From Candidatus Atribacteria bacterium UBA6251 (GTDB taxonomy: Bacteria > Atribacterota > Phoenicimicrobiia > Phoenicimicrobiales > Phoenicimicrobiaceae), in assembly GCA_002441285.1 (NCBI GenBank), contig DJVR01000064.1:313-64312 (forward strand): a stretch of DNA of 64,000 nucleotides, read 5' to 3'. Shown here in pieces: positions 43,238 to 60,343 of the stretch. The notes under the pieces are model-generated. The model was given only the letters and a program-made list of their open reading frames with translations. It searched no databases and had not been told where the DNA came from. A program made the translations under genes and the position numbers. Positions within the stretch are counted from its first letter, which is position 1; each line of letters begins with the position of its first letter.

Positions 43238-44161
43238 ATGTTTTCATTAAAAAATAAAAAAAATCTTAGCAATAAAATCTTTCTCTTTTCAATCTTAATT
43301 TACTTATTCACTACTATTTTATGGCTTTCCTACTTTGAAATCAAAGACCCTTCTTCCTACGATATGGAAGATATATTTTTTGAGGGAATGTATCTATCTA
43401 TTGCTGGTATTTGCTTTTTCTTTATCAATAAACTAAAATCTGCTTCCTTTAATCTAGGCTGGGGTTTATATGTCTGGGGATTAGTGATCAATATTCTTGA
43501 TGAGTTTACTTCAGAACCTGGCTTTTATGATACTGTATTAGAAGGGATGATTGTTATTGCTGGATTAGTAGTAATTACCTACCATATCTATACTTTCTAT
43601 TTTCAACAACAGAAATTGGGAAAAAGATTAATCTACTTAGCTACTCATGACCCCATAACTAACTCTTATAATCGCCGCTATTTAAAGATATTGATTCGCG
43701 AAGAAGAAAAACGTTCTAAAAGATATAATCACCAGATAGGATTGATGATGATGGATATTGATAGATTCAAAGAACTTAACGATAAGTTTGGTCATCAAAT
43801 GGGGGATAAAGTTTTGCGTCGGGTGGCTAAATTTTTGGAAACTCAATTCCGAGTAGTGGATAGGGTTATTCGCTATGGGGGAGATGAATTTCTGATTGTC
43901 CTACCTGAAACTCAAAGCCTTAAAGACCTTAATCAACTTAAAGAACGACTAAAGGAAAAATTTAAAGAGGAGAAATTTGAGGAGCTTCCTACCGATTTTA
44001 GTTTCTCTCTTTCTATTGGTTGCGCCCTATGGAACCCCACTCAGGCTGCTTCCGTAGAAAATATGATTGATCAAGCCGACAAACAGATGTATCAAGAAAA
44101 GGAAAAGGGGAAAAACAATTATTCCCTCTCTCCTTCTTCCAACTTCCACTCTAAAACCTAA
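43238..44161 (+). CDS. Membrane-anchored diguanylate cyclase (GGDEF) with intact I-site
   Basis: Several N-terminal TM helices. RYGGDEF is preceded by RVVD five residues upstream (RxxD I-site). Confidence 0.85.
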   Translation: MFSLKNKKNLSNKIFLFSILIYLFTTILWLSYFEIKDPSSYDMEDIFFEGMYLSIAGICFFFINKLKSASFNLGWGLYVWGLVINILDEFTSEPGFYDTVLEGMIVIAGLVVITYHIYTFYFQQQKLGKRLIYLATHDPITNSYNRRYLKILIREEEKRSKRYNHQIGLMMMDIDRFKELNDKFGHQMGDKVLRRVAKFLETQFRVVDRVIRYGGDEFLIVLPETQSLKDLNQLKERLKEKFKEEKFEELPTDFSFSLSIGCALWNPTQAASVENMIDQADKQMYQEKEKGKNNYSLSPSSNFHSKT

Positions 44162-44581: not shown

Positions 44582-44642
44582 TTGACTTTTCTTTCTTTCC
44601 ATTTTATAATGGTAAAGGTACTAAGTTCACATCTTGAACATT
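44582..44642 (+). promoter_or_regulatory. Sigma70-type promoter plus AAGTTCA-N5-TGAACATT operator (site 1)
   Basis: TTGACT (44582-44587), 17-nt spacer, TATAAT (44605-44610). The palindrome is at 44623-44642. Confidence 0.65.
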
Positions 44643-44789
44643 AATGAGCAGGCTGGTAAGCTAACCAATTAATTAGGGGACTCTTAAATTGGTTGATTAG
44701 TAATTATTGCTTAGCCATTATCGATTAGCAATTGCTGTTTGCCTTTTGCCTTGGTTGATTGATACACCGTATAATTGAAAGGACTCCTT

Positions 44790-45425
44790 ATGATGCAAAA
44801 AGATGAACTAAATACCCTTTTAGAAATAAAAGAAAATCCATCAACCACTCAAAGATCACTATCTCGTAAACTTAACATCTCCTTAGGTCTTACCAATGCC
44901 ATTTTAAAGAACCTGATTGAGCGTGGCTGGATTAAGGTACAAAAATTAACCGGTCGTAAAATCCTTTATCTTATCACTCCTAAAGGAATGATGCGGGTAA
45001 CTAACTTGCTCTACGAACGGTTTCACGAAACCCAGCACTACTGTCAGCATACCAAGGATTTAATCAACCATTATTTTATAGAACTCTACCAGCAGGGGAT
45101 TCGGGAAGTAGCCCTCTACGGCATCAATCAGCTCTCGGAAATAACCTATCTTGCCCTCCTGGATAGCCCTCTGAAATTGCACTCCATCCTCAATAATGAC
45201 CCTTCATCCCCTAAAAAGAAATTCCTGGGTCATGAGGTGCTAACTTTATCCGACTTTTTTCAAAGAATATCCGATACACCAAATCCCGAAAACTTAATCA
45301 TACTTTCTACCGTCAATTATGAAGGTAATAAAATCCTGAATGCTGAAAGAAAAAAATGGGAAAACATATCCCAAAAGATTAAAATATTCAATCTCGAAGA
45401 TCTCTTAAAAAATAATACCCAATAA
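44790..45425 (+). CDS. EPS-associated MarR-type winged-helix regulator with C-terminal Rossmann-like domain
   Basis: LNTLLEIKENPSTTQRSLSRKLNISLGLTNAILKNLIERGWIKVQKLTGRKILYLITPKG resembles the EPS-associated MarR subfamily. The track start at 44775 is TTG. The ATG at 44790/44793 is preferred. Confidence 0.7.
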   Translation: MMQKDELNTLLEIKENPSTTQRSLSRKLNISLGLTNAILKNLIERGWIKVQKLTGRKILYLITPKGMMRVTNLLYERFHETQHYCQHTKDLINHYFIELYQQGIREVALYGINQLSEITYLALLDSPLKLHSILNNDPSSPKKKFLGHEVLTLSDFFQRISDTPNPENLIILSTVNYEGNKILNAERKKWENISQKIKIFNLEDLLKNNTQ

Positions 45426-45437
45426 CAGAGGGGTAAA

Positions 45438-45492
45438 TTGACAGGCCATTCTTTCTATGGTATATTTTATATAAGTTCATATTATGAACATT
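45438..45492 (+). promoter_or_regulatory. Sigma70-type promoter plus AAGTTCA-N5-TGAACATT operator (site 2)
   Basis: TTGACA (45438-45443), 17-nt spacer, TATATT (45461-45466). The palindrome is at 45473-45492. Confidence 0.65.
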
Positions 45493-45494
45493 CT

Positions 45495-45532
45495 GTCATT
45501 GCCAGGGGGGCTTTAGCAACCGAAACAATCTC
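45495..45532. repeat. GTCATTGC...CAATCTC element (family E), intergenic copy
   Basis: gtcattgccaggggggctttagcaaccgaaacaatctc. It shares its termini with the copy inside ugd. Confidence 0.6.
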
Positions 45533-46032
45533 TACTTACAACCTAAAAAGATATAAATTATCTCATTACCTTGCACTTTGAAATGCTTAATATACAAGGG
45601 TTTCAGAACCCTCTTAAAATTATAAAAAATATTCATCACGAAAATCGTCTCCAAAGCAAGTAAAAGAGTGCCATAAATAGCCTTTTGAGCTCTTGAAAGG
45701 GTTGCTATATAAGGCTTTCAAGTGATATTCGCGTATAACGCGTATAATGCATTTTTTTGAAGTCCATAAGGTAAAACCCTTTAAATTTCAAAAAAATGCT
45801 TAATATGAGCGTTCTATTAGATCTAGCCCAAAAGGCTTTTATGATAAGGGTTTCCGACAGCTCAATAATGAAATAATTAACTAATGCTTAGCTTAGTGGG
45901 ATAGATAATCGTTCACTGTTTCAGGAAAATTAAATATTAGAAATAATTGGTCAATTGAATAACCTGGCAACTTTTTTAAAACTGTAAACTTTACATTTGC
46001 AACTTGCATCTAACTTTTCATCCTGAATTTTT

Positions 46033-46104
46033 AACCGGTAAATCGGGTAACTGGTTAACTGGTGAACTGAGTCTGACCGCTAGACTGGAAGACTGGGAGA
46101 CTAA
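46033..46104. repeat. Octamer-periodic tract (ACTGGNNA units x8)
   Basis: aaccggta|aatcgggta|actggtta|actggtga|actgagtctg|accgctag|actggaag|actgggag|acta, immediately upstream of the ugd RBS. Confidence 0.75.
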
Positions 46105-46127
46105 ATTTTATAAACGGAAGGAATAAA

Positions 46128-47489
46128 ATGAATATATGTATTATCGGTACTGGCTATGTTGGCCTGGTCACAGGCACTTGCCTTGCTGACTTTGGTCTTT
46201 CTGTAACCTGTGTTGATCAAGACGAAACAAAAATTTCTCTTCTAAACTCCGGTGGCGTTCCCATTTACGAACCGAATTTAGAAGCGTTAATCCAAAAGAA
46301 CATCTCAGCTGGCCGTCTTACCTTTACCACTGACCTTGAAAAAGCAGTCCAACAATCCAAAGTAATCTTTATTGCTGTTGGAACTCCTCCCAATCACGAT
46401 GGATCCACAAATTTAGAGCAGATTGAAAAGGTAGCCCAGCAAATTGCCGCCTCTCTAAATGAATATAAAGTTATAGTAAACAAAAGCACTGTCCCCATCG
46501 GCACCGCCACCAAAATCAAAGAAATAATAAATAAAAATGTCATTGCGAGGAGCGAAGTAAGCCTGCCCCAGCGAAAGCAGGGGAAGCAATCTCACCCTCA
46601 ATTAAAACCAATTGAATTTGACGTCGTCGCCAACCCTGAATTCCTTCGGGAGGGCTCAGCAGTCTATGACTTTACCCATCCCGATAAAATAGTAATCGGC
46701 ACCGAAAGCCCCAAGGCTCTAAAGATAATGCAGGAAATTTACCGCCCTCTCTACCTTATCGATACACCCTTTGTGATTACCAATCCCGAAACTGCAGAAT
46801 TAATTAAATATGCCTGTAATGCCTTTTTGGCTACCAAGATTACCTTTATTAATGAAATTGCCAACCTCTGTGACAAAGTAGGAGCAGATGTGCATCAGAT
46901 AGCCAAAGCTATGGGTTTGGATGGCCGTATCAGTCCTAAATTTCTCCATCCCGGTCCTGGTTATGGTGGCTCCTGTTTCCCTAAAGATACCGAAGCCCTT
47001 TATCATTTTGCATCAACTTGCGGATATGATTTTAAACTCCTAAAAGGGGTAATCTCTGCCAACAATCGCCAAAGAGAACTGATGGTAGAAAAAATTAAAC
47101 ATCATCTTGGCAATCTTAAAGGAAAAACCATCGGCATCTTAGGCCTGGCCTTCAAACAAAATACTGATGATATTCGAAAATCCCCTGCAATTGATATTAT
47201 CCAACTATTACTTAAAGAAGGCGTGCGTATCAAATGCTTCGACCCTCTGGCAATGGATAATACTAAAAAAATCCTTCCCAACTTAACCTATTGCCAGGAT
47301 GAATACGAAACTGCTCAAGATAGTGATGCCCTGGTAATTGCTACTGAATGGAATCAATTCCGTAATCTGGACCTACTTAAAATAAAAAAACTATTAAAAT
47401 CTCCCACCTTACTTGACCTAAGAAACTTATACGACCCAGAAAAAGTAAAACTCTTAGGCTTTATCTATGAGGGAGTAGGAAGGAAATAA
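46128..47489 (+). CDS. ugd: UDP-glucose 6-dehydrogenase
   Basis: N-terminal ICIIGTGYVGLVTGTCLADFG, NPEFLREG and catalytic GGSCFPKD. Carries a 19-codon in-frame insert at 46539-46595. Confidence 0.9.
   Translation: MNICIIGTGYVGLVTGTCLADFGLSVTCVDQDETKISLLNSGGVPIYEPNLEALIQKNISAGRLTFTTDLEKAVQQSKVIFIAVGTPPNHDGSTNLEQIEKVAQQIAASLNEYKVIVNKSTVPIGTATKIKEIINKNVIARSEVSLPQRKQGKQSHPQLKPIEFDVVANPEFLREGSAVYDFTHPDKIVIGTESPKALKIMQEIYRPLYLIDTPFVITNPETAELIKYACNAFLATKITFINEIANLCDKVGADVHQIAKAMGLDGRISPKFLHPGPGYGGSCFPKDTEALYHFASTCGYDFKLLKGVISANNRQRELMVEKIKHHLGNLKGKTIGILGLAFKQNTDDIRKSPAIDIIQLLLKEGVRIKCFDPLAMDNTKKILPNLTYCQDEYETAQDSDALVIATEWNQFRNLDLLKIKKLLKSPTLLDLRNLYDPEKVKLLGFIYEGVGRK
46539..46595. repeat. Family E hairpin element inserted in-frame in ugd
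   Basis: gtcattgcgaggagcgaagtaagcctgccccagcgaaagcaggggaagcaatctcac. Terminal ATTGC/GCAAT inverted repeat and an internal CCCC-a-GC-GAAA-GC-a-GGGG hairpin. Translated as VIARSEVSLPQRKQGKQSH. Confidence 0.7.
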
Positions 47490-47505
47490 CAAATATTTTT
47501 TTAAT

Positions 47506-48978
47506 ATGAACACAGTCCAAAGAATTGCAAAAAATACAGCAGTTTTACTTGCTGCTACTATAATTAGTAGAGTGTTAGGCTTTTTTTATGTACTGTATAC
47601 TGCCCGTTATTTAGGGGCAGAAGGTTTTGGAATTTTATCTTTTGCCCTTGCTTTCACTGGAATATTTGGCGTTTTCACCGACCTCGGTCTTGGATCATTG
47701 ACAGTGAGGGAAGTTGCCCGGGATAAATCATTGGCAGTTAAATATCTTGACAACATTACAGTAATAAAAATAATTTTAGTTACTTTCACATTTGGATTAA
47801 TTGCTTTAGCCATAAATGTTTTAGGTTACCCGGAGCAAACAATCAAGGTTGTTTATCTTATTGCTTTATCTGTTGTGTTTAATGAGTTTGCTATGATGTT
47901 TTATTCGATATTTCAGGCATTTGAAAAAATGGAATATCAGTCATTGGGACAGATTTTAAGTAGTGCTTTAATGTTCTCAGGAGTTATACTTGCTATAAAA
48001 TATAATTTTACTATCGTTGTCTTTGCGTCTTTATATCTTATAATTAGTGTTATAATTTTAGGGTATAATATTGTCGTTTTAAGATGGAAGTTTTCCAATC
48101 CGTTCCTTGCCTGGTCTCCAAGAAATATAAAAATAGATTGGAGTTTTTGGAGCCCTACAATTAAGGAGGCATTACCCTTTGGGTTGAGTGGAATTTTCAT
48201 TACAATTTATTATCATATTGATACTGTCATGCTTTCTTTAATGATACCTAATGCGAATGAAATTGTTGGTTGGTATAATGCAGCGTATAAAATAGTTTTT
48301 GTTTTAATGTCTATACCACATATGTATGTTATAGTAATTTTTCCTATTATGTCAAGATTTTTTAAAACTTCGGAGAAATCCTTGAAATTTATTTTCGCTC
48401 GTTCTATTAGATATATACTACTTATAAGCATTCTAATTGTGGTTGGAATAACATTACTGTCGGATAGGATAATTTTATTAGTTTTCGGATCAGATTATAT
48501 TCCATCAATAATTGCACTTCAAATTTTGGTTTGGTCGTTTCTTTTTGCAGCTATCGGAGGTGTTTTCGGATACTTATTAAATTCTATAAATAGACAAGCA
48601 ACATTGACTAAGATTGTTGGATGTGGTATGGCCTTAAATTTAGTTTTAAATGCTCTTTTAATACCGAATTATAGTTACATTGGTGCGAGTATTGCAACAG
48701 ATTTAACTAGATTTTTTGTAATCTTAATAGAATTTATTATACTTTCAAAAATTGGTTTTAACCTGCAGAATAGCATGTTTTTTGCTGTGGTGCTGAAAAT
48801 AATTGCTTCAAGTTTAATAATGGCAGGCTTTATTGAATATTTCAGAAATATAAATCTTTTATTGCTGATAATTTTATCTGCGTTTCTATATTTTATAGCA
48901 TTTTATTTAATGGGGGGATTGGATAAAGGTGATATTTCTTTAGTTAGGAGGCTATTGCATGGAAGAATTGAAAGCTAA
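47506..48978 (+). CDS. wzx: Wzx-type polysaccharide flippase (MOP superfamily)
   Basis: 490 aa with about 14 TM helices. The N-terminus KNTAVLLAATIISRVLGFFYVLYTARYLGAEGFG is typical of the family. Confidence 0.8.
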   Translation: MNTVQRIAKNTAVLLAATIISRVLGFFYVLYTARYLGAEGFGILSFALAFTGIFGVFTDLGLGSLTVREVARDKSLAVKYLDNITVIKIILVTFTFGLIALAINVLGYPEQTIKVVYLIALSVVFNEFAMMFYSIFQAFEKMEYQSLGQILSSALMFSGVILAIKYNFTIVVFASLYLIISVIILGYNIVVLRWKFSNPFLAWSPRNIKIDWSFWSPTIKEALPFGLSGIFITIYYHIDTVMLSLMIPNANEIVGWYNAAYKIVFVLMSIPHMYVIVIFPIMSRFFKTSEKSLKFIFARSIRYILLISILIVVGITLLSDRIILLVFGSDYIPSIIALQILVWSFLFAAIGGVFGYLLNSINRQATLTKIVGCGMALNLVLNALLIPNYSYIGASIATDLTRFFVILIEFIILSKIGFNLQNSMFFAVVLKIIASSLIMAGFIEYFRNINLLLLIILSAFLYFIAFYLMGGLDKGDISLVRRLLHGRIES

Positions 48979-50743
48979 CAAAGAAGAGGCAAATCGAAAA
49001 TGGCATTTATCAGAATTCCAATATGAAAAAGAGAGTGGAATTTATTTATCGGAGAAGTCACATACAATTTGCTATTCAGATGGAGCAAGTGTCGAAAATT
49101 ACATTTTACAATCTATAAAAAAAGCTAAAGATATTACGGATGACTCGGAAGAGCTTATGAAAATGGCAAAAGACTGGCCCTCTTATTATCATTTAGGGAT
49201 AGGAAGATCAAATATCTTAAAAACCCTTAATTTGCTTCCTAACGCTAAAGTTTTAGAACTTGGTTCTGGGTGTGGAGCCTTAACAAGATATTTAGGCGAA
49301 AATTTTGAGTCGGTTGATGGTATTGAAGGAAGCCCTCAACGCGCACAAATAGCACACGAAAGATGTAGAGATTTAAAAAATGTTAAAATATTTTGTTCGG
49401 ATTTTAATAGAGTAAAATTTAACAATAATTATGATATTGTTACTTTAATAGGTGTCCTGGAATATTCTCCTAAATATTGCTTAAATCAATTAGATACAAC
49501 AGATGCCTGCTTAATGCTTTTAAATCTTGCAAAAACTGCCCTAAAAAAAAATGGTATTTTACTAATAGCAATAGAAAATAGAATTGGAATTAAATATTGG
49601 AGTGGCTGTCCGGAGGATCATACGGGAAAAATATTTAGTAGTATTTACGGATATCCCGAAGGAAAGGGCGTAATAACTTTTTCTAAAAAAGAATTAAATT
49701 CTTTATTGGAAAAGGCAGGTTTTTTAAATAATTCTTTTTATTCTTGTTTTCCTGATTATAAATTTGCATCTACTATATTTAGTGATATTGAGGATGAAAA
49801 AGATTTTTATCTTCATAATTGGGTAGAAATTCCTTTTCGTACATATAGTGTTCCAAGAAGTTATACTTTTCATGAAGGTCTAGCAATTAAGACATTATCT
49901 AAATCAGGATTATTGAGAGAATTTGCAAATTCTTTTTTAGTTATAGCAAGTAAAAGTGAAAATAATATAGTTAATAAACCGGATTGGATTGCAAAAAGAT
50001 TCTCCACACAAAGGCGAAAGGAATTTCAATGTATAACTACATTAAAGATAAATCCTAAAATTTATATAGAGAAAAAAAAGATAATTAATGATAAAAATTA
50101 TATAATAAAAAAGAATAATTACAAAATAAAACAAAAAGCTATAAATTCTCCTTGGTATGATGGTGATTTATTAATATTTGATATATATAAAATGTCTATT
50201 TGTAAGGATTATAAAAAAAAGTTATTAAAAATATTTAATTTGTATTACCAAGAACTATTTAAGCGCTATTATATAGGGAGCAATGACAAGGAAGGTTATC
50301 CTCTTTTGAAGGGTGAGTCAATCGATTTTATTTTTAGAAATATAATAAAAGCAAATAACAAAATTTTACCTATAGACAATGAATGGTTTATAGAAAATTC
50401 TATTCCTGCAGACTATGTTATGTATAGAACTGTAATAACTGATATTGTGGGATCACAATTTCCTTGGATTGATAAAAAAATTAAAAATGTTGATAAATTT
50501 ACAGTTGAATTAATAAAATCAATTTTTCCAAATTATGGGAATAGAAGAAACAATAAAAACAAACTGATTGAAAAATCTTTCCAGGATGGTGTAACAAATG
50601 GATTAAATCAAATAAATTTATTACCAAATTACTATTTTTTAAGAAATAAAATAATTAGGAGTCTAACTTTAAAAGTATGGAGTAAAATATTGCCTAGAAG
50701 AATAAAAACCGTAATAAAAAAGATTATTTTTAAAAAACAGTAA
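48959..50743 (+). CDS. Class I SAM-dependent methyltransferase fused to a kinase-like domain and basic C-terminal tail
   Basis: Motif I VLELGSGCGALTRYL. Downstream DFIFRNIIKANNKILPIDNEWF resembles the DxxxxN...(I)DxE catalytic loops of APH/choline-kinase-like folds. Tail: RRIKTVIKKIIFKKQ. Confidence 0.65.
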   Translation: MEELKANKEEANRKWHLSEFQYEKESGIYLSEKSHTICYSDGASVENYILQSIKKAKDITDDSEELMKMAKDWPSYYHLGIGRSNILKTLNLLPNAKVLELGSGCGALTRYLGENFESVDGIEGSPQRAQIAHERCRDLKNVKIFCSDFNRVKFNNNYDIVTLIGVLEYSPKYCLNQLDTTDACLMLLNLAKTALKKNGILLIAIENRIGIKYWSGCPEDHTGKIFSSIYGYPEGKGVITFSKKELNSLLEKAGFLNNSFYSCFPDYKFASTIFSDIEDEKDFYLHNWVEIPFRTYSVPRSYTFHEGLAIKTLSKSGLLREFANSFLVIASKSENNIVNKPDWIAKRFSTQRRKEFQCITTLKINPKIYIEKKKIINDKNYIIKKNNYKIKQKAINSPWYDGDLLIFDIYKMSICKDYKKKLLKIFNLYYQELFKRYYIGSNDKEGYPLLKGESIDFIFRNIIKANNKILPIDNEWFIENSIPADYVMYRTVITDIVGSQFPWIDKKIKNVDKFTVELIKSIFPNYGNRRNNKNKLIEKSFQDGVTNGLNQINLLPNYYFLRNKIIRSLTLKVWSKILPRRIKTVIKKIIFKKQ

Positions 50744-51000
50744 TAGAAGTTCATTTATACCTAAATTATAAATCCATATAAACTTATATTTTCTGTTATT
50801 TTAATTGTTTTATAACAAAAATAATACCAATAACATAGTGTGATTTGATATAGAGGGGTTATAAAGTTTTTATTCATCTATAGTGTTTAACTAAATAGAA
50901 AAAAATTACTCCAATACTGTTTTTAAAAGAATGTTTTTCTTTAATTAGGTATAACTAAGACAGATAATATATAAAATTTTTTATAATGGAGATAAGAATA

Positions 51001-51882
51001 ATGAAAGGCATAATATTAGCCGGTGGGGCGGGGACCAGACTCAATCCCTTAACCAAAGCAATAAGTAAACAATTAATTCCAGTGTATGATAAACCGATGA
51101 TATATTATCCCTTATCTACTTTGATGCTAGCGGGGATCAAAGATATTTTAATTATTTCTACTCCTCAGGATTTACCGAAATTTAGAGATTTATTTGAGGA
51201 TGGTAAAGAAATTGGACTTAAAATTACCTATAAAGAACAGCCCAGGCCAGAGGGGATTGCCCAGGCCTTTATTATTGGAGAGGAATTTATTGGAGAAGAT
51301 TCAGTATGCTTGATACTGGGGGATAATATATTCTATGGGCATAATTTGTCAATGACTTTGCAGAAGATGGCAGGACTAAAAGAAGGAGCTTGTATCTTTG
51401 GTTACTGGGTAGCTAATCCGCAAAGATATGGGATAGTGGAATTTAATGAAGGTAATGAAGTTGTAAGCATAGAGGAAAAACCGAAGGTTCCTAAATCCAA
51501 TTATGCTGTTCCTGGACTTTATTTTTATGATAATGAGGTTGTGGATATAGCTAAAAAATTAAAGCCCTCTGGCAGAGGGGAACTGGAGATAACTGATGTA
51601 AACTTAGCTTACTTAGAGAAAGGGAGTCTTAAGGTAGAACTTTTGGGTCGAGGTTATGCCTGGTTGGATACCGGAACACCGGACAGTTTGCTTGATGCTT
51701 CAAATTATATTGCTACTATGGAGAGAAGACAGGGCCTAAAGATTGGCTGTATAGAAGAGGTAGCTTTCAGGATGGGTTATATTAATAAGAATCAGTTTGA
51801 GGGAATAATTGAGCGATTACCGGCAAATGATTACAGAAAATATCTGGAAATGATTTTAAAAGAAGAACAAAAGATAAAGTAG
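51001..51882 (+). CDS. rfbA: Glucose-1-phosphate thymidylyltransferase
   Basis: [18 protein letters not shown]... The track start at 50986 is also possible. Confidence 0.95.
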
Positions 51883-51891
51883 AGGGTGGCT

Positions 51892-52386
51892 ATGGAATTT
51901 AAAAAAGGTGAAATCGAAGGGGTAGTAATAGAAAAATTAATTAAATTTTCTGATGAGAGAGGTTTTTTGATAGAGACCTTCAGGATAGATAATCTGCCGG
52001 ATAATTTACAGCCAATAATGAGCTATGTCTCTTATACCAGGCCAGGAGTCGCTCGAGGACCTCATGAACATAAGGAGCAGACTGATATCTTTTGTTTTAT
52101 GGGGCCGGGTAATTTTAAGATAAAACTGTGGGATAATCGAAAAGAGAGTAAGACTTATAGATGTTGTATGGAGATAATTGGAGGGAAAGATAATTCCATC
52201 AGGGTAGTTGTTCCTCCCGGGGTAGTTCATGGTTATAAAAATATCTCTAAAGAGGTAGATGGAATGGTGTTAAATTATCCCGATAAATTATATCGAGGTT
52301 GGGGCAAAAAAGAAGAAGTTGATGAAATAAGACACGAAGATAAAGAGGATGAATTTTATTTAGATTTTATTAAAGAGGATAAATAG
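51892..52386 (+). CDS. rfbC: dTDP-4-dehydrorhamnose 3,5-epimerase-like cupin (short form)
   Basis: FSDERGFLIETFR and HEHKEQTDIF motifs, positioned between rfbA and rfbD. Confidence 0.8.
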   Translation: MEFKKGEIEGVVIEKLIKFSDERGFLIETFRIDNLPDNLQPIMSYVSYTRPGVARGPHEHKEQTDIFCFMGPGNFKIKLWDNRKESKTYRCCMEIIGGKDNSIRVVVPPGVVHGYKNISKEVDGMVLNYPDKLYRGWGKKEEVDEIRHEDKEDEFYLDFIKEDK

Positions 52387-52389
52387 TCT

Positions 52390-53289
52390 ATGATCTGGCT
52401 TATCGGAAATAAAGGAATGCTGGGTAATGATGTAGAAAAATTATTAAAAGAGCGAGGGCTTACTTATTGGGCCAGTGATAAGGAAGTCGACATTAGCGAT
52501 TATAAAGCGATGGAGAAATTTGGAAAAGACAAGAAGATTAAATGGATAATCAATTGTTCAGGATATACCAAAGTAGATAAGGCAGAAGAAGAAGTAGATG
52601 AGGCCTTCAGAATAAACAAAGATGGGGTTAGGAATATTGCCTTATTTTCGGCAAAGAGGCAGATCAAATTAATTCATATTTCCACAGATTATGTATTTGA
52701 TGGTAGTCAAGAGGGCGGTGGGGGTGTCGTTGCTTACAGTGAAGATGATAAAACTAATCCTATAAATATATATGGTAAGAGCAAATTAGCTGGGGAAGAG
52801 GAGATAAAAAAGATATTAGAGGAATATTTTATCATCCGCACCGCCTGGCTCTATGGATTACAGGGGAATAATTTTGTCTATACTATGTTAAGATTATTCA
52901 AGGAAAGAGATTTGGTAAAGGTAGTAGAAGACCAGTGGGGCTCTCCTACTTATACGGTGGATTTAGCGAGAGCTATTTTAAAGATAATAGAAGATGATTC
53001 AGTTAGTTATGGGATATATCATTTTACCAATGAGGGAGTAACCAATTGGTATGAATTTGCTAAGGCAATTTATAATAGAGCTAAAAGATTAGGATTGATT
53101 GATGACAATAAAAAAGTAGAGATACAACCTATCAAGACTGAGGATTATCCTACAGCTGCCAGGAGACCAAGATATTCAGTTTTATCTAAAGAGAAAATAA
53201 AGAAAGAATTTAATATTGAAATTCCTTATTGGAGAGAGTCTTTAGAGAAATACTTGAAGAGGATTTTGGATGAAGGATATAGGATTTAG
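52390..53289 (+). CDS. rfbD: dTDP-4-dehydrorhamnose reductase
   Basis: HISTDYVFDG, YGKSKLAGE and RPRYSVL motifs. Confidence 0.9.
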   Translation: MIWLIGNKGMLGNDVEKLLKERGLTYWASDKEVDISDYKAMEKFGKDKKIKWIINCSGYTKVDKAEEEVDEAFRINKDGVRNIALFSAKRQIKLIHISTDYVFDGSQEGGGGVVAYSEDDKTNPINIYGKSKLAGEEEIKKILEEYFIIRTAWLYGLQGNNFVYTMLRLFKERDLVKVVEDQWGSPTYTVDLARAILKIIEDDSVSYGIYHFTNEGVTNWYEFAKAIYNRAKRLGLIDDNKKVEIQPIKTEDYPTAARRPRYSVLSKEKIKKEFNIEIPYWRESLEKYLKRILDEGYRI

Positions 53290-53291
53290 TT

Positions 53292-53648
53292 ATGAATTAT
53301 GAAGAGCTAAATGTATTCAAAGAATCTCATAAGTTTGTTTTAGAGATTTATAAAATAACTGAGACCTTTCCAAATGAGGAGAAATTTAGGTTAGTTGATC
53401 AACTAATAAGAGCGTCATATTCTATTCCGTCAAATATTGTTGAAGGAAACAGCAGAAATACGACAAAAGATTATATAAACTTTTTATATAATGCAAGGAG
53501 TAGTGCAAATGAGATTAAATATTTTTTACTTTTATCAAAAGATTTAGGATATATCAGTATGGAAAGATATTTGGAACTGAAAACTAAAATAGAAGATATT
53601 ATTAAAATGTTAAATGGATTAATAAATTCATTGAAAAGGAAAATATGA
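53292..53648 (+). CDS. Four-helix-bundle protein (23S rRNA intervening-sequence protein family)
   Basis: LIRASYSIPSNIVEGNSRNTTKDYINFLYNARSSANEIKYFLLLSKDLGYI is diagnostic of the family. Wedged between rfbD and rfbB with an ATGA stop/start overlap. Confidence 0.85.
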   Translation: MNYEELNVFKESHKFVLEIYKITETFPNEEKFRLVDQLIRASYSIPSNIVEGNSRNTTKDYINFLYNARSSANEIKYFLLLSKDLGYISMERYLELKTKIEDIIKMLNGLINSLKRKI

Positions 53649-54886
53649 TGAAGAAAGAAAAGAACACTAATGATTTACAAAATCACAAATCCCCAATCCT
53701 AAATCCCAAATCCATCCCCCTACATCCTAAATCCATCTTAGTTACCGGGGGAGCAGGATTTATCGGCTCAAACTTTATTCATTATGTTTTTAAGGAAACT
53801 AAATTTGATGGGAAAATTATCAATGTAGATAAACTAACCTATGCTGGTAATTTAGAGAATTTAGTAGAGATTGATAATAAATATGGTGGAGAGAGATATT
53901 TTTTTGAGAGAGTAGATATATGTGATTTTAATGAGATTAAAAGGATATTTGAGAAATATGATATTGATACCGTGGTTAATTTTGCCGCAGAATCACATGT
54001 AGATAGGTCTATCTTTGGGCCTAAAGATTTTGTGCAGACTAATATTATGGGAACATTTAATCTTTTGGAAGTAGCATATAAATACTGGATGGAGAAGCCA
54101 TTCAAGTATAAAGCCAGATACTTGAATGGAGGGAACATAGGATTTAGGGGTAAGGGTTTAGAAAGTAACGAAATCCAAAATCCAAAATCCAAAATTCATT
54201 TTCCTCGCTTCCATCATATCAGTACTGATGAAGTCTATGGTTCGATTGAGAAGGGAGGATATTTTTATGAGGATACTGCTTATAAACCAAATAGCCCTTA
54301 TTCTGCCTCTAAAGCTTCTTCTGATCATCTAGTAAGAGCTTACCATAAGACTTATGGCCTGCCCGTTACTATTTCTAATTGTTCTAACAATTATGGTCCT
54401 TATCAATTTCCGGAGAAATTAATTCCTTTGATGATTTTAAACATTTTAGAAGAAAAGGCTCTGCCGGTATATGGTGATGGGAAAAATGTGCGGGATTGGC
54501 TGTATGTGGAAGACCACTGTTCGGCAATTTGGGAGATATTAAATAAGGGAAGGGTAGGCGAGACCTATAATATCGGTGGAGAGAATGAGTGGGAAAATAT
54601 AAAGCTGGTTAATTCTCTTTGTGAGAAGATAGCGAAGATAAAAGGAAAAGATAAAGATTATTATAAAAAATTAATTACCTTTGTCAAAGATAGACCTGGA
54701 CATGACCGACGATATGCCATTAATTGTGATAAGATAAAGCGTGAGCTGGGCTGGAATAGGCAATATGATTTTGAAAAAGGATTAGATTATACCATCAAAT
54801 GGTATATAAATAATCAAGACTGGGTAGATAGAGTAAGAAGTGGGGAGTACAGGAAGTGGATTGAGAGGAATTATAATAGGAGATAA
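53645..54886 (+). CDS. rfbB: dTDP-glucose 4,6-dehydratase with repeat-derived N-terminal extension and internal insert
   Basis: ILVTGGAGFIGSNF, HISTDEVYGS and YSASKASSDHL. The extra segments coincide with heptamer repeats at 53687-53737 and 54140-54198. Confidence 0.9.
   Translation: MMKKEKNTNDLQNHKSPILNPKSIPLHPKSILVTGGAGFIGSNFIHYVFKETKFDGKIINVDKLTYAGNLENLVEIDNKYGGERYFFERVDICDFNEIKRIFEKYDIDTVVNFAAESHVDRSIFGPKDFVQTNIMGTFNLLEVAYKYWMEKPFKYKARYLNGGNIGFRGKGLESNEIQNPKSKIHFPRFHHISTDEVYGSIEKGGYFYEDTAYKPNSPYSASKASSDHLVRAYHKTYGLPVTISNCSNNYGPYQFPEKLIPLMILNILEEKALPVYGDGKNVRDWLYVEDHCSAIWEILNKGRVGETYNIGGENEWENIKLVNSLCEKIAKIKGKDKDYYKKLITFVKDRPGHDRRYAINCDKIKRELGWNRQYDFEKGLDYTIKWYINNQDWVDRVRSGEYRKWIERNYNRR
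53687..53737. repeat. Heptamer tandem repeat (AAATCCN) translated as the rfbB N-terminal extension
   Basis: aaatccc|caatcct|aaatccc|aaatcca|tccccct|acatcct|aaatcca. Confidence 0.75.
54140..54198. repeat. Palindromic heptamer-repeat element inside rfbB
   Basis: ggattta|ggggtaa|gggttta ... aaatcca|aaatcca|aaatcca|aaattca. The two halves are mutually complementary. Confidence 0.75.
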
Positions 54887-54959
54887 ATTAAAATTTAAAA
54901 AATCTAGAATTAGCAGTAATTTATTGATTAATTTACTATAGAGGAATAAATAAAATATT

Positions 54960-55976
54960 ATGAATGAACCTTTAATTTCTATAATTTCTCCTACTTATAA
55001 TCATAGATTGTATATAGGTAAGTGCATAGAAAGTGTTTTAAAACAGACTTATATAAATTGGGAAATGATTATTATTGATGATTTTTCCAGTGACGGAACA
55101 CCAGAAATTATTGAGAAATATATTAAAAAAGATAAAAGAATAAAAACTATTAGACATACAGAGAATTATGGAATTTATCGATTATCTGATAGTTATAACG
55201 AGGCTTTAAAAATTGCAACTGGTGAATTTATTGCAATTTTAGAAGGCGACGATTATTGGCCCAAAGATAAGTTAGAAAAACAAATAATATTTTTTAATAA
55301 TGATAAAGTTATACTTGTATGGGGGAAAGGAGCTTATATTAATGCAAAAGGAAAAATTATCAGATTAATGTCTTTCCCTAGAATATCTTTAAGGTCTAAA
55401 TCAATCTATTATAATAAACCAATTGGTATGGCATTAAAAAAGTTATTATTTGAAAATTTCATCGTTCCTACAGCAAGTATAATGGTAAAAAAAAGCGCTC
55501 TTTTATCAATAGGTGGTTTTAAACAGCCTTCAAATATTTCCTATGTAGATTATCCAACCTGGCTTGAACTTTCGTTAAAAGGTGAATTTTGTTTTTCAAA
55601 TGATATTCTTGGTTATTGGAGGATACATTCTTCTCAAGCAACAGCCACTTTTTTGAATGAGCAAATATTTAGTCGTTCAAAAATAGCTTTTGAATTTTGC
55701 AAGTCTTTACCTGACGATTTCAAGAAATCTTTAGAAATAAATGATAGAACTATTGAGGTAAGATATTATTGGTTCGAAGGAAGATCAAATTTATTAATAA
55801 AAAATTGGAGTGATTCTCGAAACGATTTCATTAAAGTATTTTTAAAAGGATCGCTATTTATGAAGATAAAAGGGATAATTGGATTATTTAGTAGTTATTT
55901 AAAAAAAGATATTATTAAGTATTTAGCAAAGATAATCAATCGAAAATTATATAATGGTATAGAAAATGAAAATTAA
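54960..55976 (+). CDS. Family 2 glycosyltransferase
   Basis: ISIISPTYNH...IIIDDFSSDGT...LEGDDYW. Confidence 0.85.
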   Translation: MNEPLISIISPTYNHRLYIGKCIESVLKQTYINWEMIIIDDFSSDGTPEIIEKYIKKDKRIKTIRHTENYGIYRLSDSYNEALKIATGEFIAILEGDDYWPKDKLEKQIIFFNNDKVILVWGKGAYINAKGKIIRLMSFPRISLRSKSIYYNKPIGMALKKLLFENFIVPTASIMVKKSALLSIGGFKQPSNISYVDYPTWLELSLKGEFCFSNDILGYWRIHSSQATATFLNEQIFSRSKIAFEFCKSLPDDFKKSLEINDRTIEVRYYWFEGRSNLLIKNWSDSRNDFIKVFLKGSLFMKIKGIIGLFSSYLKKDIIKYLAKIINRKLYNGIENEN

Positions 55977-57183
55977 TGGAGTTAAAAAAGTATTATTTTC
56001 TTTATTTATATTAGCAATTCCATTTGATAATTATAATATATTTTCACAATTTTCTACTTCTGATATATTTTTAATTTTTTTATTGTTTTTCTTGTTAATA
56101 AATATTCTACTTGGGAAAAGTAAATTTGAATGGAATAATGTAAATACTTTATTAATAATATTATTATTTTGGTTTATTTTGTCTTTTTTTAATTCAGAAA
56201 ATTTGGATATATCTTTACGTACATTAATAACAAGTATTATGGTAATCCTTGTAGTTTATATTACTATATATTATAATGATTCACAAAAAGCATTAAGAAA
56301 TATTTATTGGATTATCATAGTTACTGGAATAATTTCAGCTACAACAGGTATATTACAATTTTTATTATATAAAAATCTGGGTATTATATTATGGCATCCA
56401 AGATTTTATTATAGTGATTTAACGAATAGTAGTATTTTTAGAATAACAGGAAGTTATTTCGATCCCAATTATTATACTTTATATTTAATTATTCCAATGA
56501 TATTATCATTAATGATAATTGTTGAAAAGAAATTTTTTACACATCGGGAAAGAATATATGCTTTTTTTTCTTTAATAATAATAACGATACCTTATATTTT
56601 GAGTTTTTCCAGAGCAGGTTGGCTAGTTTTAGCGGTATTCTCTTTTTGCTTTGTTTTTAGAAGATTAAAAATTACAGGAAGATTTTTTTTATTTAGTTTA
56701 GTTATTGTAATTTTAATTACTGGAATAATTCCAAAACTATTTTATAATTTAGTAAATTTTAACTATGAATCGATAATGCAACGTTTTACCATTGCAATTT
56801 ACAGTTTACGAACAATTTTTAGTCATCCAATAAATGGCATTGGTTTAGGAGTAAGGATTTTCAATCCATATACTGGATATAGGATGGAAACACATAATAC
56901 ATTTCTCCAAGTAGGGACATATGCGGGTCTTTTTGCTTTAATTGTTTTTATCGCAATCGTAATATATATTTTTTATTGCGGAAGTAAAACTTATAAAAAA
57001 ATAAAAGGCACACAAGATGGAGTAATTTTAGAGGGATATATATGGGCATTTAGTAGCTGTCTTCTGGGAATGTTAACCTTGAATGGATTGTTTTTGAAAC
57101 ACTTTTGGGTACTTAGCGGTTTAGTAATGTCTTATTATTTACTAATTGGGAAAGGCAAGTATAATATTGAAAGTATTAAATGA
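55966..57183 (+). CDS. wzy: O-antigen polymerase (Wzy)/O-antigen ligase-like membrane protein
   Basis: About 10-11 TM helices, a SRAGWLVL loop and ETHNTFLQVGTYAGLFAL (Wzy_C-type). Confidence 0.75.
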   Translation: MKINGVKKVLFSLFILAIPFDNYNIFSQFSTSDIFLIFLLFFLLINILLGKSKFEWNNVNTLLIILLFWFILSFFNSENLDISLRTLITSIMVILVVYITIYYNDSQKALRNIYWIIIVTGIISATTGILQFLLYKNLGIILWHPRFYYSDLTNSSIFRITGSYFDPNYYTLYLIIPMILSLMIIVEKKFFTHRERIYAFFSLIIITIPYILSFSRAGWLVLAVFSFCFVFRRLKITGRFFLFSLVIVILITGIIPKLFYNLVNFNYESIMQRFTIAIYSLRTIFSHPINGIGLGVRIFNPYTGYRMETHNTFLQVGTYAGLFALIVFIAIVIYIFYCGSKTYKKIKGTQDGVILEGYIWAFSSCLLGMLTLNGLFLKHFWVLSGLVMSYYLLIGKGKYNIESIK

Positions 57184-58357
57184 TAAATTAATAAATATTC
57201 TTTATTTTGAAAATGTTGCTATTTTAGGTGGAGCAGCAATTGTTTTAAGGAATCTTATAAAAGAAATTAAAAAAGAAGAGGGAATAAATCTTATTGTAGT
57301 TTGTCCGGAAGGAGAATTAGCAAAAGCCTTTAGAGAAGATGGTATAAAAGTTGAGGTTGTTAATTCTAAAAGAATTGTAAAAACTTTAAACCCTTTAAAA
57401 TTGCTATTTTATTTTTATAATTTTTTACAAGTAAATTTGAAGCTAATAAAAATAATCCGAAAATACAATATTGATATTTTACATTCCAATTCTTTGGGAG
57501 CACATATTTATAGTTTTTTTGCTGCAAAAATATCAGGTATTCCTAATATTTGGCATTTACACGATATTTTAAAAAAAAGAATATCTAACCAATTATTATG
57601 TGTTTTTTTAAGTAAGATGGCTACCCAAATTATTGTTGTTTCTTGTGCTGTTAAAAAATCTTTAGTCAATTTTGGTATTAATTCGAATAAGATAAAAGTT
57701 ATTTATAATGGATTAGATTTAAAATTTTGGAAATCGCACGTTTATACTCAAAATTATTTGTTAAGAGAATTCAATATAGATAAAAATAATTTTATTAAAA
57801 TAGGAATTATTGGGCAATTAACTAAATGGAAAGGGCAAGATGTTTTTTTAGATTCTGTAACAAATTTAATAAGAATAGGAAATACTAACCTAAAGTTTTT
57901 TATCATAGGTGATGAACTTTTTAAAGAGGAAAATGAATATAAAAATAGCCTTTATAAACAAGTTCAGGTTAATCATATTGGGGATTATGTAATATTTACA
58001 GGCTGGAGAAATGACATACCAAATATTATGGCTTTTTTAGATATTGTTATTGTTTGTTCTTGCTATCCTGATTCTTTACCGACAGTTGTATTAGAGGCAA
58101 TGGCGATGGGTAAAGTTGTGATTGGTACAAATATTGGAGGTATACCAGAAATGATATTAAATGATGAAACTGGGATATTAATACCGCCAAACGATCCAAA
58201 AGCTTTGGCAAAAGCCATTTTAGGTTTAATTAACCAACCTGATAAAATCAAAGAAATGGGATTTAAATCAAGAGAAAGATTAAAATCAAATTTTACAATA
58301 GAAAAAAATGTTGAGATGGTTAAAGATTTATATCAAGAAATACTAAAAAAACAATAA
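57146..58357 (+). CDS. Family 4 (GT-B) glycosyltransferase
   Basis: SLPTVVLEAMAMGKVVIGTNIGGIPE. The TTG at 57167 (MKVLNDKLINILY...) is a plausible alternative start. Confidence 0.85.
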   Translation: MGKASIILKVLNDKLINILYFENVAILGGAAIVLRNLIKEIKKEEGINLIVVCPEGELAKAFREDGIKVEVVNSKRIVKTLNPLKLLFYFYNFLQVNLKLIKIIRKYNIDILHSNSLGAHIYSFFAAKISGIPNIWHLHDILKKRISNQLLCVFLSKMATQIIVVSCAVKKSLVNFGINSNKIKVIYNGLDLKFWKSHVYTQNYLLREFNIDKNNFIKIGIIGQLTKWKGQDVFLDSVTNLIRIGNTNLKFFIIGDELFKEENEYKNSLYKQVQVNHIGDYVIFTGWRNDIPNIMAFLDIVIVCSCYPDSLPTVVLEAMAMGKVVIGTNIGGIPEMILNDETGILIPPNDPKALAKAILGLINQPDKIKEMGFKSRERLKSNFTIEKNVEMVKDLYQEILKKQ

Positions 58358-58410
58358 TAATTTTTATAAGTATAAGTTATAAAAAAAGACAAATATAAAG
58401 GAACATAATT

Positions 58411-59568
58411 ATGCGTATAGCAATTGACCTTACTTCGCTTCCTACCCAACTGGTGGGAGTTGGGAGTTATGCAAAAAACCTTATTACTTCACTAAAAAAA
58501 TTTGATACAGAAAATCAATATTTTATTTTTGTAAAGAGAGAACATTCTAATGTTTTTAGCATAAATCAAAATAACATAAATATTATTTATCAAAAAAATA
58601 TACTAAGAAATAAAATATTAAGAGTTTTATGGGAACAAATTATTTTACCACTTTATATTAAGAGGTTAAAGATTGATCTCTTACATTCAATTCATTATAC
58701 TATTCCTTTATTTGCAGGATGTAAAGTAGTAGCAACTTTTCATGATATGACTTTCTTTCTTTATCCCCAAAAACATATTTTTATAAAAAGGATATTTTTT
58801 AAGTTGTTTATTCGCATTTCTAGTTGGAAGGCGAATAGAATAATTGCTGTTTCAGAAAGTACAAAAAAGGATATAATTAAATTTTTAGGTGTTAGTAATA
58901 AGATAGATGTAGTTTATGAAGCCGTAGATTCTAAATACCATCCCTTTAAGAATGAATCTATGGCTTCAATTATTATGAGGAAATATGGAATTTTTAATAA
59001 ATTTATTCTTTACGTAGGTACTCTTGAGCCTCGAAAAAATATAGTACGATTGATTCAAGCCTATTATAATTTAATTTTTAAAAATAATATAACTCACCAA
59101 TTAGTTATTGTTGGGAAAAAAGGATGGTATTATCAAGAAATATTCAAAATCGTAGACGAATTAGGTTTAAACAAAGAAAAACAAAGAGTAATTTTCACAG
59201 GATATGTACCAGATGATGAATTACTATTTTTGTATAATGCAGCAGATTTTTTTGTATATCCGTCTTTATATGAAGGATTTGGGATTCCCCCCTTAGAAGC
59301 CTTGGCATGTGGAGTTCCTGTTATTTCTTCAAATATATCTTCTCTACCAGAAGTTATAGGAGATGCAGGTATGCTTATAGACCCATATAATGTTCAGGAA
59401 ATAAGTCAAGCGATGTTCGAAATGTTAAAAAATCATAAAAAGAAAGTACAATTTAAGATTAAAGGTTTAAAAAGAGCAGAAAAATTTTCAAATGAAAAAA
59501 TAGCAGAGGGAACAATTAAAGTATATAAAAAGACGATGCAAGAAGGTAATAAATTATATGAAACATAG
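58411..59568 (+). CDS. Family 4 (GT-B) glycosyltransferase
   Basis: YEGFGIPPLEALACGVPVISSNISSLPEV. Confidence 0.85.
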   Translation: MRIAIDLTSLPTQLVGVGSYAKNLITSLKKFDTENQYFIFVKREHSNVFSINQNNINIIYQKNILRNKILRVLWEQIILPLYIKRLKIDLLHSIHYTIPLFAGCKVVATFHDMTFFLYPQKHIFIKRIFFKLFIRISSWKANRIIAVSESTKKDIIKFLGVSNKIDVVYEAVDSKYHPFKNESMASIIMRKYGIFNKFILYVGTLEPRKNIVRLIQAYYNLIFKNNITHQLVIVGKKGWYYQEIFKIVDELGLNKEKQRVIFTGYVPDDELLFLYNAADFFVYPSLYEGFGIPPLEALACGVPVISSNISSLPEVIGDAGMLIDPYNVQEISQAMFEMLKNHKKKVQFKIKGLKRAEKFSNEKIAEGTIKVYKKTMQEGNKLYET

Positions 59569-60343
59569 TATTGATATTTCAATTGCTATAGTAACTTATA
59601 ATAATAGTAAAATTATAAAAAAATGCTTAAATAGCATATTTAAAAATATAAATAATACTAATTTTGAAATAATCATTGTTGATAATGGTTCCTCTGATAA
59701 TACTGTTGAAATTATAGAAAATAATTTTAAAAATATAAAATTAATACAAAACAATAAAAATATTGGATTTGGTGCTGCTCATAATATAGCTATTAAACTA
59801 GGGAGAGGGAAGTATCATTTAGTTCTAAATCCTGATGTTATTTTTACAGAAAACTCTGTTGAAAAACTTGTTAATTTTATGGAAGAAAATCTAGATGTTG
59901 GATTAGTGTCTCCAAAAATAGTATATCCTGATGGAACAACGCAATATTTATGCAAGAGATTACCCTGTCTTTTTGATTTAGCTATAAGAAGATTTACTCC
60001 AAGATTTATCCAAAACTTATTTAAAAAAAGAATAGATTACTTTGAAATGAGAGAAACAGGTTATAATAAAATTATGGAAGTACCATACTTATCTGGTTCG
60101 ATTATGTTATTTAGAAAAAATATATTAGCAAAAATCGGTGGTTTTGATGAAGATTATTTTATGTATTTTGAAGATGCGGATATAACGCGAAAAATTAGCG
60201 AGATCTCAAGAGCAGTATTTTATCCGCATACAAGTGTAATTCATTTATGGCAACGTGATTCACACAAAAATATTAAATTATTTTTTGTTAGTCTTATATC
60301 CACTATTAAATATTTCAATAAATGGGGATGGAAAATAGTTTAA
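59558..60343 (+). CDS. Family 2 glycosyltransferase
   Basis: ISIAIVTYNN...IIIVDNGSSDNT...FMYFEDAD. Confidence 0.85.
   Translation: MKHSIDISIAIVTYNNSKIIKKCLNSIFKNINNTNFEIIIVDNGSSDNTVEIIENNFKNIKLIQNNKNIGFGAAHNIAIKLGRGKYHLVLNPDVIFTENSVEKLVNFMEENLDVGLVSPKIVYPDGTTQYLCKRLPCLFDLAIRRFTPRFIQNLFKKRIDYFEMRETGYNKIMEVPYLSGSIMLFRKNILAKIGGFDEDYFMYFEDADITRKISEISRAVFYPHTSVIHLWQRDSHKNIKLFFVSLISTIKYFNKWGWKIV

Follow-up and report, generated by a model that had tools for sequence, protein, structure and literature searches.

The window analysed here, a 64,000-nucleotide stretch of one contig of Candidatus Atribacteria bacterium UBA6251, carries a regulator gene among genes for surface-polysaccharide synthesis. 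Upstream of the regulator gene lie a Wzz-like gene, pgm, and a GGDEF gene. Downstream of it lies a co-directional series, comprising ugd, wzx, a methyltransferase gene, rfbA/C/D/B, glycosyltransferase genes, and a Wzy-like gene, which presumably constitutes one operon, because of its gene order and short gaps. Two copies of a dyad-symmetric site, 850 bp apart, flank the regulator gene, and each of them stands behind a promoter (Table 1).

Table 1. Positions, in window coordinates, of the regulator gene and of the predicted promoters, putative operators, leader, and operon around it
Feature	Positions	Strand	Description
Promoter P1 of the regulator gene	44582..44610	+	TTGACT (44582-44587), 17 nt, TATAAT (44605-44610)
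Operator O1 (putative)	44623..44642	.	AAGTTCA-CATCT-TGAACATT; core dyad 44625-44639
Regulator gene	44790..45425	+	211 aa; winged helix, long helix, Rossmann-like domain
Promoter P2 into the polysaccharide operon	45438..45466	+	TTGACA (45438-45443), 17 nt, TATATT (45461-45466)
Operator O2 (putative)	45473..45492	.	AAGTTCA-TATTA-TGAACATT; core dyad 45475-45489
Untranslated leader, O2 to ugd	45493..46127	+	~635 nt; opens with a REP-like hairpin element
Co-directional polysaccharide operon, presumed P2-driven	46128..60343	+	from the ORF list and family matches

Direct reading of the letters confirmed the coordinates of the two AAGTTCA-N5 dyads and the promoter hexamers given in the original prediction. 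The sites had been described there as one palindrome; this holds for the core of 5 + 5 nt, GTTCA-N5-TGAAC, but not for the flanks, which O1 and O2 have in common and which are nonetheless non-palindromic (A-GTTCA...TGAAC-A). By this reading, O1 begins 12 nt past the TATAAT of P1, and O2 begins 6 nt past the TATATT of P2, which also has an extended −10 TG at 45458-45459. Relative to transcription starts predicted from the promoter hexamers only, the core of O1 extends from approximately +8 to +22 and that of O2 from approximately +3 to +17, in agreement with the earlier placement of both dyads at or just past the start; a site over the +1 of a near-consensus promoter occupies a repressor position. 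The two promoters had also been called strong, and they are indeed the two best σ70-type promoters around the regulator gene, being the only ones between 44100 and 46300 that match the consensus at 11 of 12 positions. A weaker promoter-like site (10/12) at 44746-44775, downstream of O1, could evade control.

The leader between O2 and ugd holds no open reading frame of at least 60 aa, no terminator-like site was found on the + strand between P2 and ugd, and no Rfam family matches the whole window at gathering thresholds, so that no known leader RNA is present. The REP-like hairpin element at its head (ctgtcattgc...gcaatctc, at about 45495-45532) recurs 5 to 10 nt past the operator in many promoter-plus-dyad cassettes of different classes (L010, L022/L044, L023, L030, and L126); lying right behind the operator, it would form the 5′ end of the leader RNA. 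A different hairpin repeat takes its place in L128.

The GGDEF gene directly upstream of the regulator gene (window 43238-44161) encodes a membrane-anchored diguanylate cyclase and follows the phosphoglucomutase gene, as does its counterpart in the closest relative, L126 (3366-4289). Because it lies directly upstream of the regulator both here and in that relative, c-di-GMP is a candidate signal for the regulator locus. Inside the operon, ugd carries an in-frame insert of ~22 aa (VIARSEVSLPQRKQGKQSHP...; window 46539-46595, residues about 138-160) that resembles a translated repeat element, and a gene between rfbD and rfbB (window 53292-53648) encodes a 23S_rRNA_IVP-like four-helix bundle, an assignment that comes from its sequence similarity to small genes inserted at the locus heads of relatives. 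Degenerate copies of an 8-nt unit (GATTGGCN) are found at about 44688-44702 and 44752-44766 of the window, and the P1 leader holds short 'ttggttgatt' remnants; in L128, this unit forms long tandem arrays (8321-8565 and 10207-10313) just upstream of the operon-side promoter cassettes.

Domain architecture and family of the regulator

Residues 6-80 of the regulator comprise a winged helix with the recognition helix LNISLGLTN and match the Pfam families HTH_24 and MarR, the latter (PF01047) with 28.7 bits, against a gathering threshold of 24.6, in a match confined to residues 6-53. Of the named families, TIGR04176 (MarR_EPS) scores best on the winged helix plus the adjoining helix, at 53.7 and 54.9 bits, which is below the curated cut-off of 88. 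The original designation of the protein as an EPS-type MarR regulator was therefore borne out in part: the winged helix is MarR_EPS-like, and its gene sits within a surface-polysaccharide cluster, as is expected of TIGR04176 members, but with some 54 bits against 88, and with 211 aa and an added C-terminal alpha/beta domain in place of a single domain of ~105 aa, the protein is not a bona fide member of that family.

A full-length AlphaFold model (pLDDT 78) consists of (i) the winged helix, (ii) a long helix, assigned to residues 64-101, and (iii) a Rossmann-like alpha/beta domain, assigned to about residues 103-211. The two-sided dimerization helices of MarR proteins are missing from this monomer model: the winged helix begins as early as residue 4, and behind it come the long helix and the Rossmann-like domain. 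In a fold search against the PDB, the winged helix of the full-length model matched the MarR-type proteins FabT, HcaR, and SlyA, and the search otherwise gave loose methyltransferase matches only. When the C-terminal domain was modelled alone (pLDDT 85, pTM 0.80), its best PDB fold matches were Rex repressors, with TM-scores of 0.5-0.6 and E-values from 3.7e-4 (top match 3ikv_B, E 3.7e-4, TM 0.57). The matched chains include Rex from T. aquaticus (3ikv, 3ikt, and 1xcb), T. maritima (7wb3), and B. subtilis (2vt3), as well as the Rex-family repressor RSP (3wg9) and 5zz5, which is deposited simply as Rex; a further match of the model is 3nkl, a UDP-sugar dehydrogenase, in its N-terminal Rossmann domain. 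This second, Rex-like Rossmann domain was missing from the earlier description of the regulator as a winged-helix protein.

At the sequence level, no Pfam family matched the C-terminal 110 residues even at E = 10, and no similarity of this domain to Rex was found in the Pfam and PDB searches. The glycine motif of the window's regulator is degenerate, reading GINQLS (Y-G-I-N-Q-L-S) where Rex has GxGxxG; the loop reads G-T-G-Q-L-A in many homologs and G-A-G-E-V-A in distant ones. Further, the recognition helix and the wing are invariant across a 41-sequence alignment. Judged by these models, the regulator is a plausible ligand-controlled DNA binder.

A family profile, searched among 1.84 billion clusters at 50% identity, retrieved 2676 representatives with E ≤ 0.001, of which 857 also pass E ≤ 1e-10, and most of the representatives are 180-250 aa long and match across both domains. 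Distant members retain a GxGxxA/G motif and give weak matches to the CoA_binding, PglD_N, and NeuD N-terminal models. The match of a distant relative to CoA_binding (PF02629), the Pfam family of the Rex C-domain, is below threshold (18.3 bits versus 22.3), and distant two-domain relatives score 61-67 bits on TIGR04176. On these grounds, we assign the regulator to a large unnamed family whose members combine a MarR_EPS-like winged helix with a Rex-like Rossmann domain. With the N-terminal 95 residues as query, a word-based search for short canonical MarR_EPS proteins found nothing beyond truncated copies of this family. Locus L125 contains a short gene fragment whose MarR_EPS-like recognition helix belongs to another type (GFSLGKLNYMLNAL); 87 nt ahead of the gene start at 1501, the locus has a GTTCA-TTTAT-TGAAC site (about 1414-1428), a hint that other branches of the family may share the operator.

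Occurrence of the dyad in the genome, in Atribacterota, and in SAR324

The metagenome-assembled, 79%-complete genome (1,705,004 bases, 33.5% G+C) contains exactly two copies of GTTCA-N5-TGAAC, both at the regulator locus. While base composition alone leads one to expect about 1.8 exact copies genome-wide, the chance of a second copy within 1 kb of the first is ~0.002, a figure that follows from the genome density and ignores the flanks and the promoter position. Two exact copies at this short distance, with the same flanks and in the same place behind the two best local promoters, are not due to chance. Other half-site spacings (N0-N11) gave 0-2 matches each genome-wide, and the 42 one-mismatch sites elsewhere in the genome lie nearly all within long ORFs, with no promoter found in front of them. 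Neither enrichment nor a further promoter-linked site emerged from these genome-wide searches of N0-N11 spacings and one-mismatch sites. Thus, the genome-wide search proposed along with the original prediction returned only the two copies at the locus, and the frequent random occurrence that would have spoken against it is absent. The regulon in this 79%-complete assembly appears to consist of these two promoters.

Among 86 Atribacterota genomes, the regulator is present in 16, all of them in two families of one order. The sequence AGTTCA-N5-TGAACA occurs in 15 of these 16 genomes (36 sites) and in 13 of the 70 genomes that lack the regulator (15 sites, which is the background level), counts that are descriptive and overstate the statistics, because related genomes are not independent. 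The reversed control pattern yielded 9 sites over all 86 genomes. An equivalent dyad is conserved upstream of the regulator orthologs, and in several genera it precedes both the regulator gene and a ugd-led polysaccharide operon. Indeed, the order promoter-dyad, regulator, promoter-dyad, ugd-led operon recurs in G002, G028, L126, and L128; in the last two, whose regulators are 83% and 73% identical to the window's, respectively, the counterpart of O2 lies ~50 nt past the regulator stop codon.

The position of the dyad relative to the promoter is likewise conserved in Atribacterota. Oriented on the regulator gene, the dyad always stands behind a TTGACA-16-to-18-TATAAT promoter, and for 34 of the 37 sites linked to a promoter, the distance from the −10 box to the start of the dyad is 8 nt, a phase that is kept across four sequence-distinct promoter classes. 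P1 of the window is an outlier in this respect, with its core dyad 14 nt, and not 8 nt, past the −10 box. In the aligned P2 regions of relatives, conservation is confined to an island between −35 and about +25, and the sequence diverges beyond it. The spacer reads CATCC in 24 of the 37 sites, and the promoter spacer is conserved too; this is more conservation than an operator needs, and other constraints or a recent spread of the cassette must therefore also act.

The cassette recurs in relatives in further settings. An insertion hotspot lies between the upstream polysaccharide genes and ugd in seven loci (L028, L032, L035, L036, L126, L128, and L130), with inserts that comprise MNT/HEPN, AbiEii, PemK, and HicA toxin-antitoxin genes, AAA_14-DUF4143 ATPases, and 23S_rRNA_IVP/bAvd-like four-helix proteins. 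Many of these inserts are preceded by a promoter-plus-dyad cassette copy of their own, and in L128 the cassette stands on both sides of a ~3.7-kb block as a direct repeat of 111 nt. Assemblies of relatives often stop ~170 nt past a dyad (G008:C104, G003:C3, and short contigs of G014 and G079), and genomes with several regulator copies carry them on contigs of 2-3 kb. The repeated cassette probably breaks these assemblies, which makes copy numbers and absences unreliable in G008, G003, G014, and G079.

A homolog from marine SAR324 shares only 29% identity with the window's regulator overall but retains the recognition helix LNISLGLTN and the wing, and GTTCA-ATAAC-TGAAC stands 90 nt ahead of its start codon. 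A metagenome scan with this SAR324 protein gave 68 loci, 59 of them with enough upstream sequence, and 57 of these 59 have a dyad with at most one mismatch in the 200 nt ahead of the gene, usually at −62. In the two exceptions (L110 and L112), coding sequence lies directly upstream of the gene, which places their promoter elsewhere. In the 42 distinct SAR324 sites, gathered by their exact half-sites, the outer bases are nearly fixed, with T before the dyad in 41 and A after it in 41, so that the palindrome lengthens to TGTTCA-N5-TGAACA, whereas the inner spacer positions vary, giving about 20 different spacers. Moreover, the dyad directly adjoins the −10 hexamer in 38 of 41 sites. The SAR324 gene heads a co-directional sugar-nucleotide and LPS-type cluster comparable to that of the window, and on some contigs the promoter-plus-dyad is duplicated in tandem. 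No downstream dyad was found on the SAR324 contigs that carry the gene, which makes the second operator, before the operon, an Atribacterota feature. Read as sequence patterns, conserved half-sites that keep their distance while the spacer varies, placed at the regulator's own promoter in two phyla whose proteins share only the DNA-reading residues, are the hallmark of an operator and the dimeric protein that binds it.

Proposed mechanism, alternatives, and relation to known systems

The original prediction held that the regulator autoregulates its gene and gates the polysaccharide operon, and comparative genomics speaks for this through the co-occurrence of dyad and regulator, the fixed promoter phase, the double placement in several genera, and the SAR324 half-sites that go with the same recognition helix. 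The invariance of the recognition helix and wing, which parallels that of the half-sites, likewise counts for the dyad as the regulator's operator. Given where the sites stand, and that they are found and conserved together with the protein, we infer that the regulator probably binds O1 and O2 as a dimer and represses both its own gene and the ugd-wzx-rfb-glycosyltransferase operon. In such a complex, a dimeric two-domain protein, with its MarR_EPS-like winged helix, long helix, and Rex-like Rossmann-type domain, would read one GTTCA half-site with each winged helix; the half-site centers are 10 bp apart, i.e., one helical turn. As the operators lie over or just past the start of near-consensus promoters, the bound protein would block RNA polymerase, which at P1 would result in negative autoregulation of the regulator gene, and at P2 would turn off the long leader and the operon behind it.

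Were the dyad instead to act in RNA, it would form a 5′-terminal hairpin, with a 5-bp stem and a 5-nt loop, that stabilizes the mRNA or signals to an RNA-binding or antitermination factor. In Atribacterota, where the dyad starts 1-2 nt past the predicted start, such a hairpin would be the first structure of the transcript; the spacer, mostly CATCC, keeps one fixed orientation to the promoter, and the consensus 27-mer forms a more stable fold than its shuffled versions do (z = −3.8). However, such a hairpin has little stability (−3.6 to −4.3 kcal/mol at 37 °C), the z-scores of the two sites in the window are only −1.1 and −1.9, and no Rfam family matches. Compensatory changes are absent from the stem, whose sequence does not vary, and this suggests that the bases themselves are read. 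In SAR324, moreover, a dyad that adjoins the −10 hexamer has the predicted start inside it, which leaves the left arm untranscribed and excludes an RNA hairpin there. Taken across both groups, a role in RNA is very improbable. An integron attC site was rejected as well, since the sequence and orientation of the dyad do not fit the attC core (GTTRRRY), and so was a LexA or Rex box, because the order of the half-sites does not fit those consensus sequences and the site is not genome-wide.

A protein other than the regulator might also bind the dyad, be it another transcription factor or a recombinase that inverts or excises the regulator gene, which is, after all, flanked by palindromic sites 850 bp apart in a locus head full of inserted toxin-antitoxin and defence-like genes. 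We regard this as improbable: no recombinase gene was found among the genes called around the sites, all copies have the same orientation at a fixed distance behind a promoter, and most SAR324 loci have a single copy (a few have tandem pairs) on the regulator's own promoter. That relatives' assemblies often break near the cassettes, and that some genomes have 4-6 copies, would suit a recombinase, but a repeated cassette accounts for the contig breaks, and genomes that lack the regulator have the dyad at background level only. The least probable reading makes the dyad a functionless passenger of a strong promoter cassette that has multiplied inside Atribacterota polysaccharide loci and moved by copying from one locus to another. 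While genera whose regulators share just 55-60% identity with the window's have near-identical whole cassettes of ~60 nt, the dyad is found at an equal distance in four unrelated promoter classes, and the SAR324 promoters, otherwise unlike the Atribacterota cassettes, keep the half-sites exact as the spacer drifts.

If the regulator is the repressor at O1 and O2, a small molecule that binds its C-terminal domain would trigger release from the DNA, analogous to Rex and NADH. This analogy suggests ligand control only weakly, given the degenerate GINQLS motif and the lack of sequence-level similarity to Rex; nucleotides, dinucleotides, and nucleotide-sugars are candidate ligands. Our guess for the C-terminal domain, a tentative one, is a nucleotide or a nucleotide-sugar, and the candidate pools are NAD(H), which is turned over by ugd, or a UDP-sugar. 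A bolder extension, which we consider possible but doubtful, is that a large cross-phylum family (857 clusters) heads surface-polysaccharide loci, with the regulators described here as its first readable members, that it senses a nucleotide or nucleotide-sugar pool, and that it co-regulates the capsule and the inserts. If this were true, one metabolite signal would co-regulate capsule synthesis and the toxin-antitoxin and defence-like inserts in Atribacterota.

Atribacterota and SAR324 are abundant, largely uncultured bacteria of the subsurface and the deep ocean, and to our knowledge almost nothing is known of their gene regulation. Our literature search on TIGR04176 or EPS-associated MarR proteins, their operator, Atribacteria together with MarR, and the dyad motif found nothing relevant. 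The present analysis yields a testable regulator-operator pair for the surface-polysaccharide loci of Atribacterota and SAR324, with a 15-bp site of defined half-sites and two target promoters in the window's genome, as well as a likely DNA motif and a Rex-like architecture for widespread proteins of ~200 aa to which databases give no more than the label "winged helix" or "MarR family". The logic of an autoregulated repressor over +1 is that of the textbook, and the value of the pair lies in annotation and in the experimental handle rather than in a new principle.

Among known systems, the classical MarR proteins (MarR, FabT, HcaR, and SlyA) have the winged-helix fold and the Pfam MarR match in common with the regulator, and autoregulation through a palindrome over the own promoter is the usual mode of the MarR family. 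However, their dimer interface is built from N- and C-terminal helices around the winged helix, which in the model of the regulator is replaced by one long helix and a separate alpha/beta domain. TIGR04176 proteins, like the regulator, are encoded in polysaccharide loci, but their model is a single-domain profile of 105 positions, to which the regulator adds a domain of ~110 aa. Rex has the same two-domain plan of ~200 aa, with an N-terminal winged helix and a C-terminal Rossmann-type domain, and a palindromic operator over the promoter, as we propose for the regulator; the wider family of the regulator keeps the GxGxxA/G motif and a weak CoA_binding match. The differences from Rex are that (i) the winged helix is MarR-like, with Pfam matches to MarR-type winged-helix families only and none to the Rex N-domain family, (ii) the C-terminal domain resembles Rex in modelled fold but not in sequence, and its glycine motif is degenerate, (iii) the Rex box, TTGTGAA-N4-6-TTCACAA, has the same pentamers in the opposite order to GTTCA-N5-TGAAC, and (iv) Rex targets genes of fermentation and respiration, whereas the targets here belong to a polysaccharide locus. 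In architecture, the regulator is thus closest to Rex, and in sequence, it is closest to TIGR04176, although not as a member.
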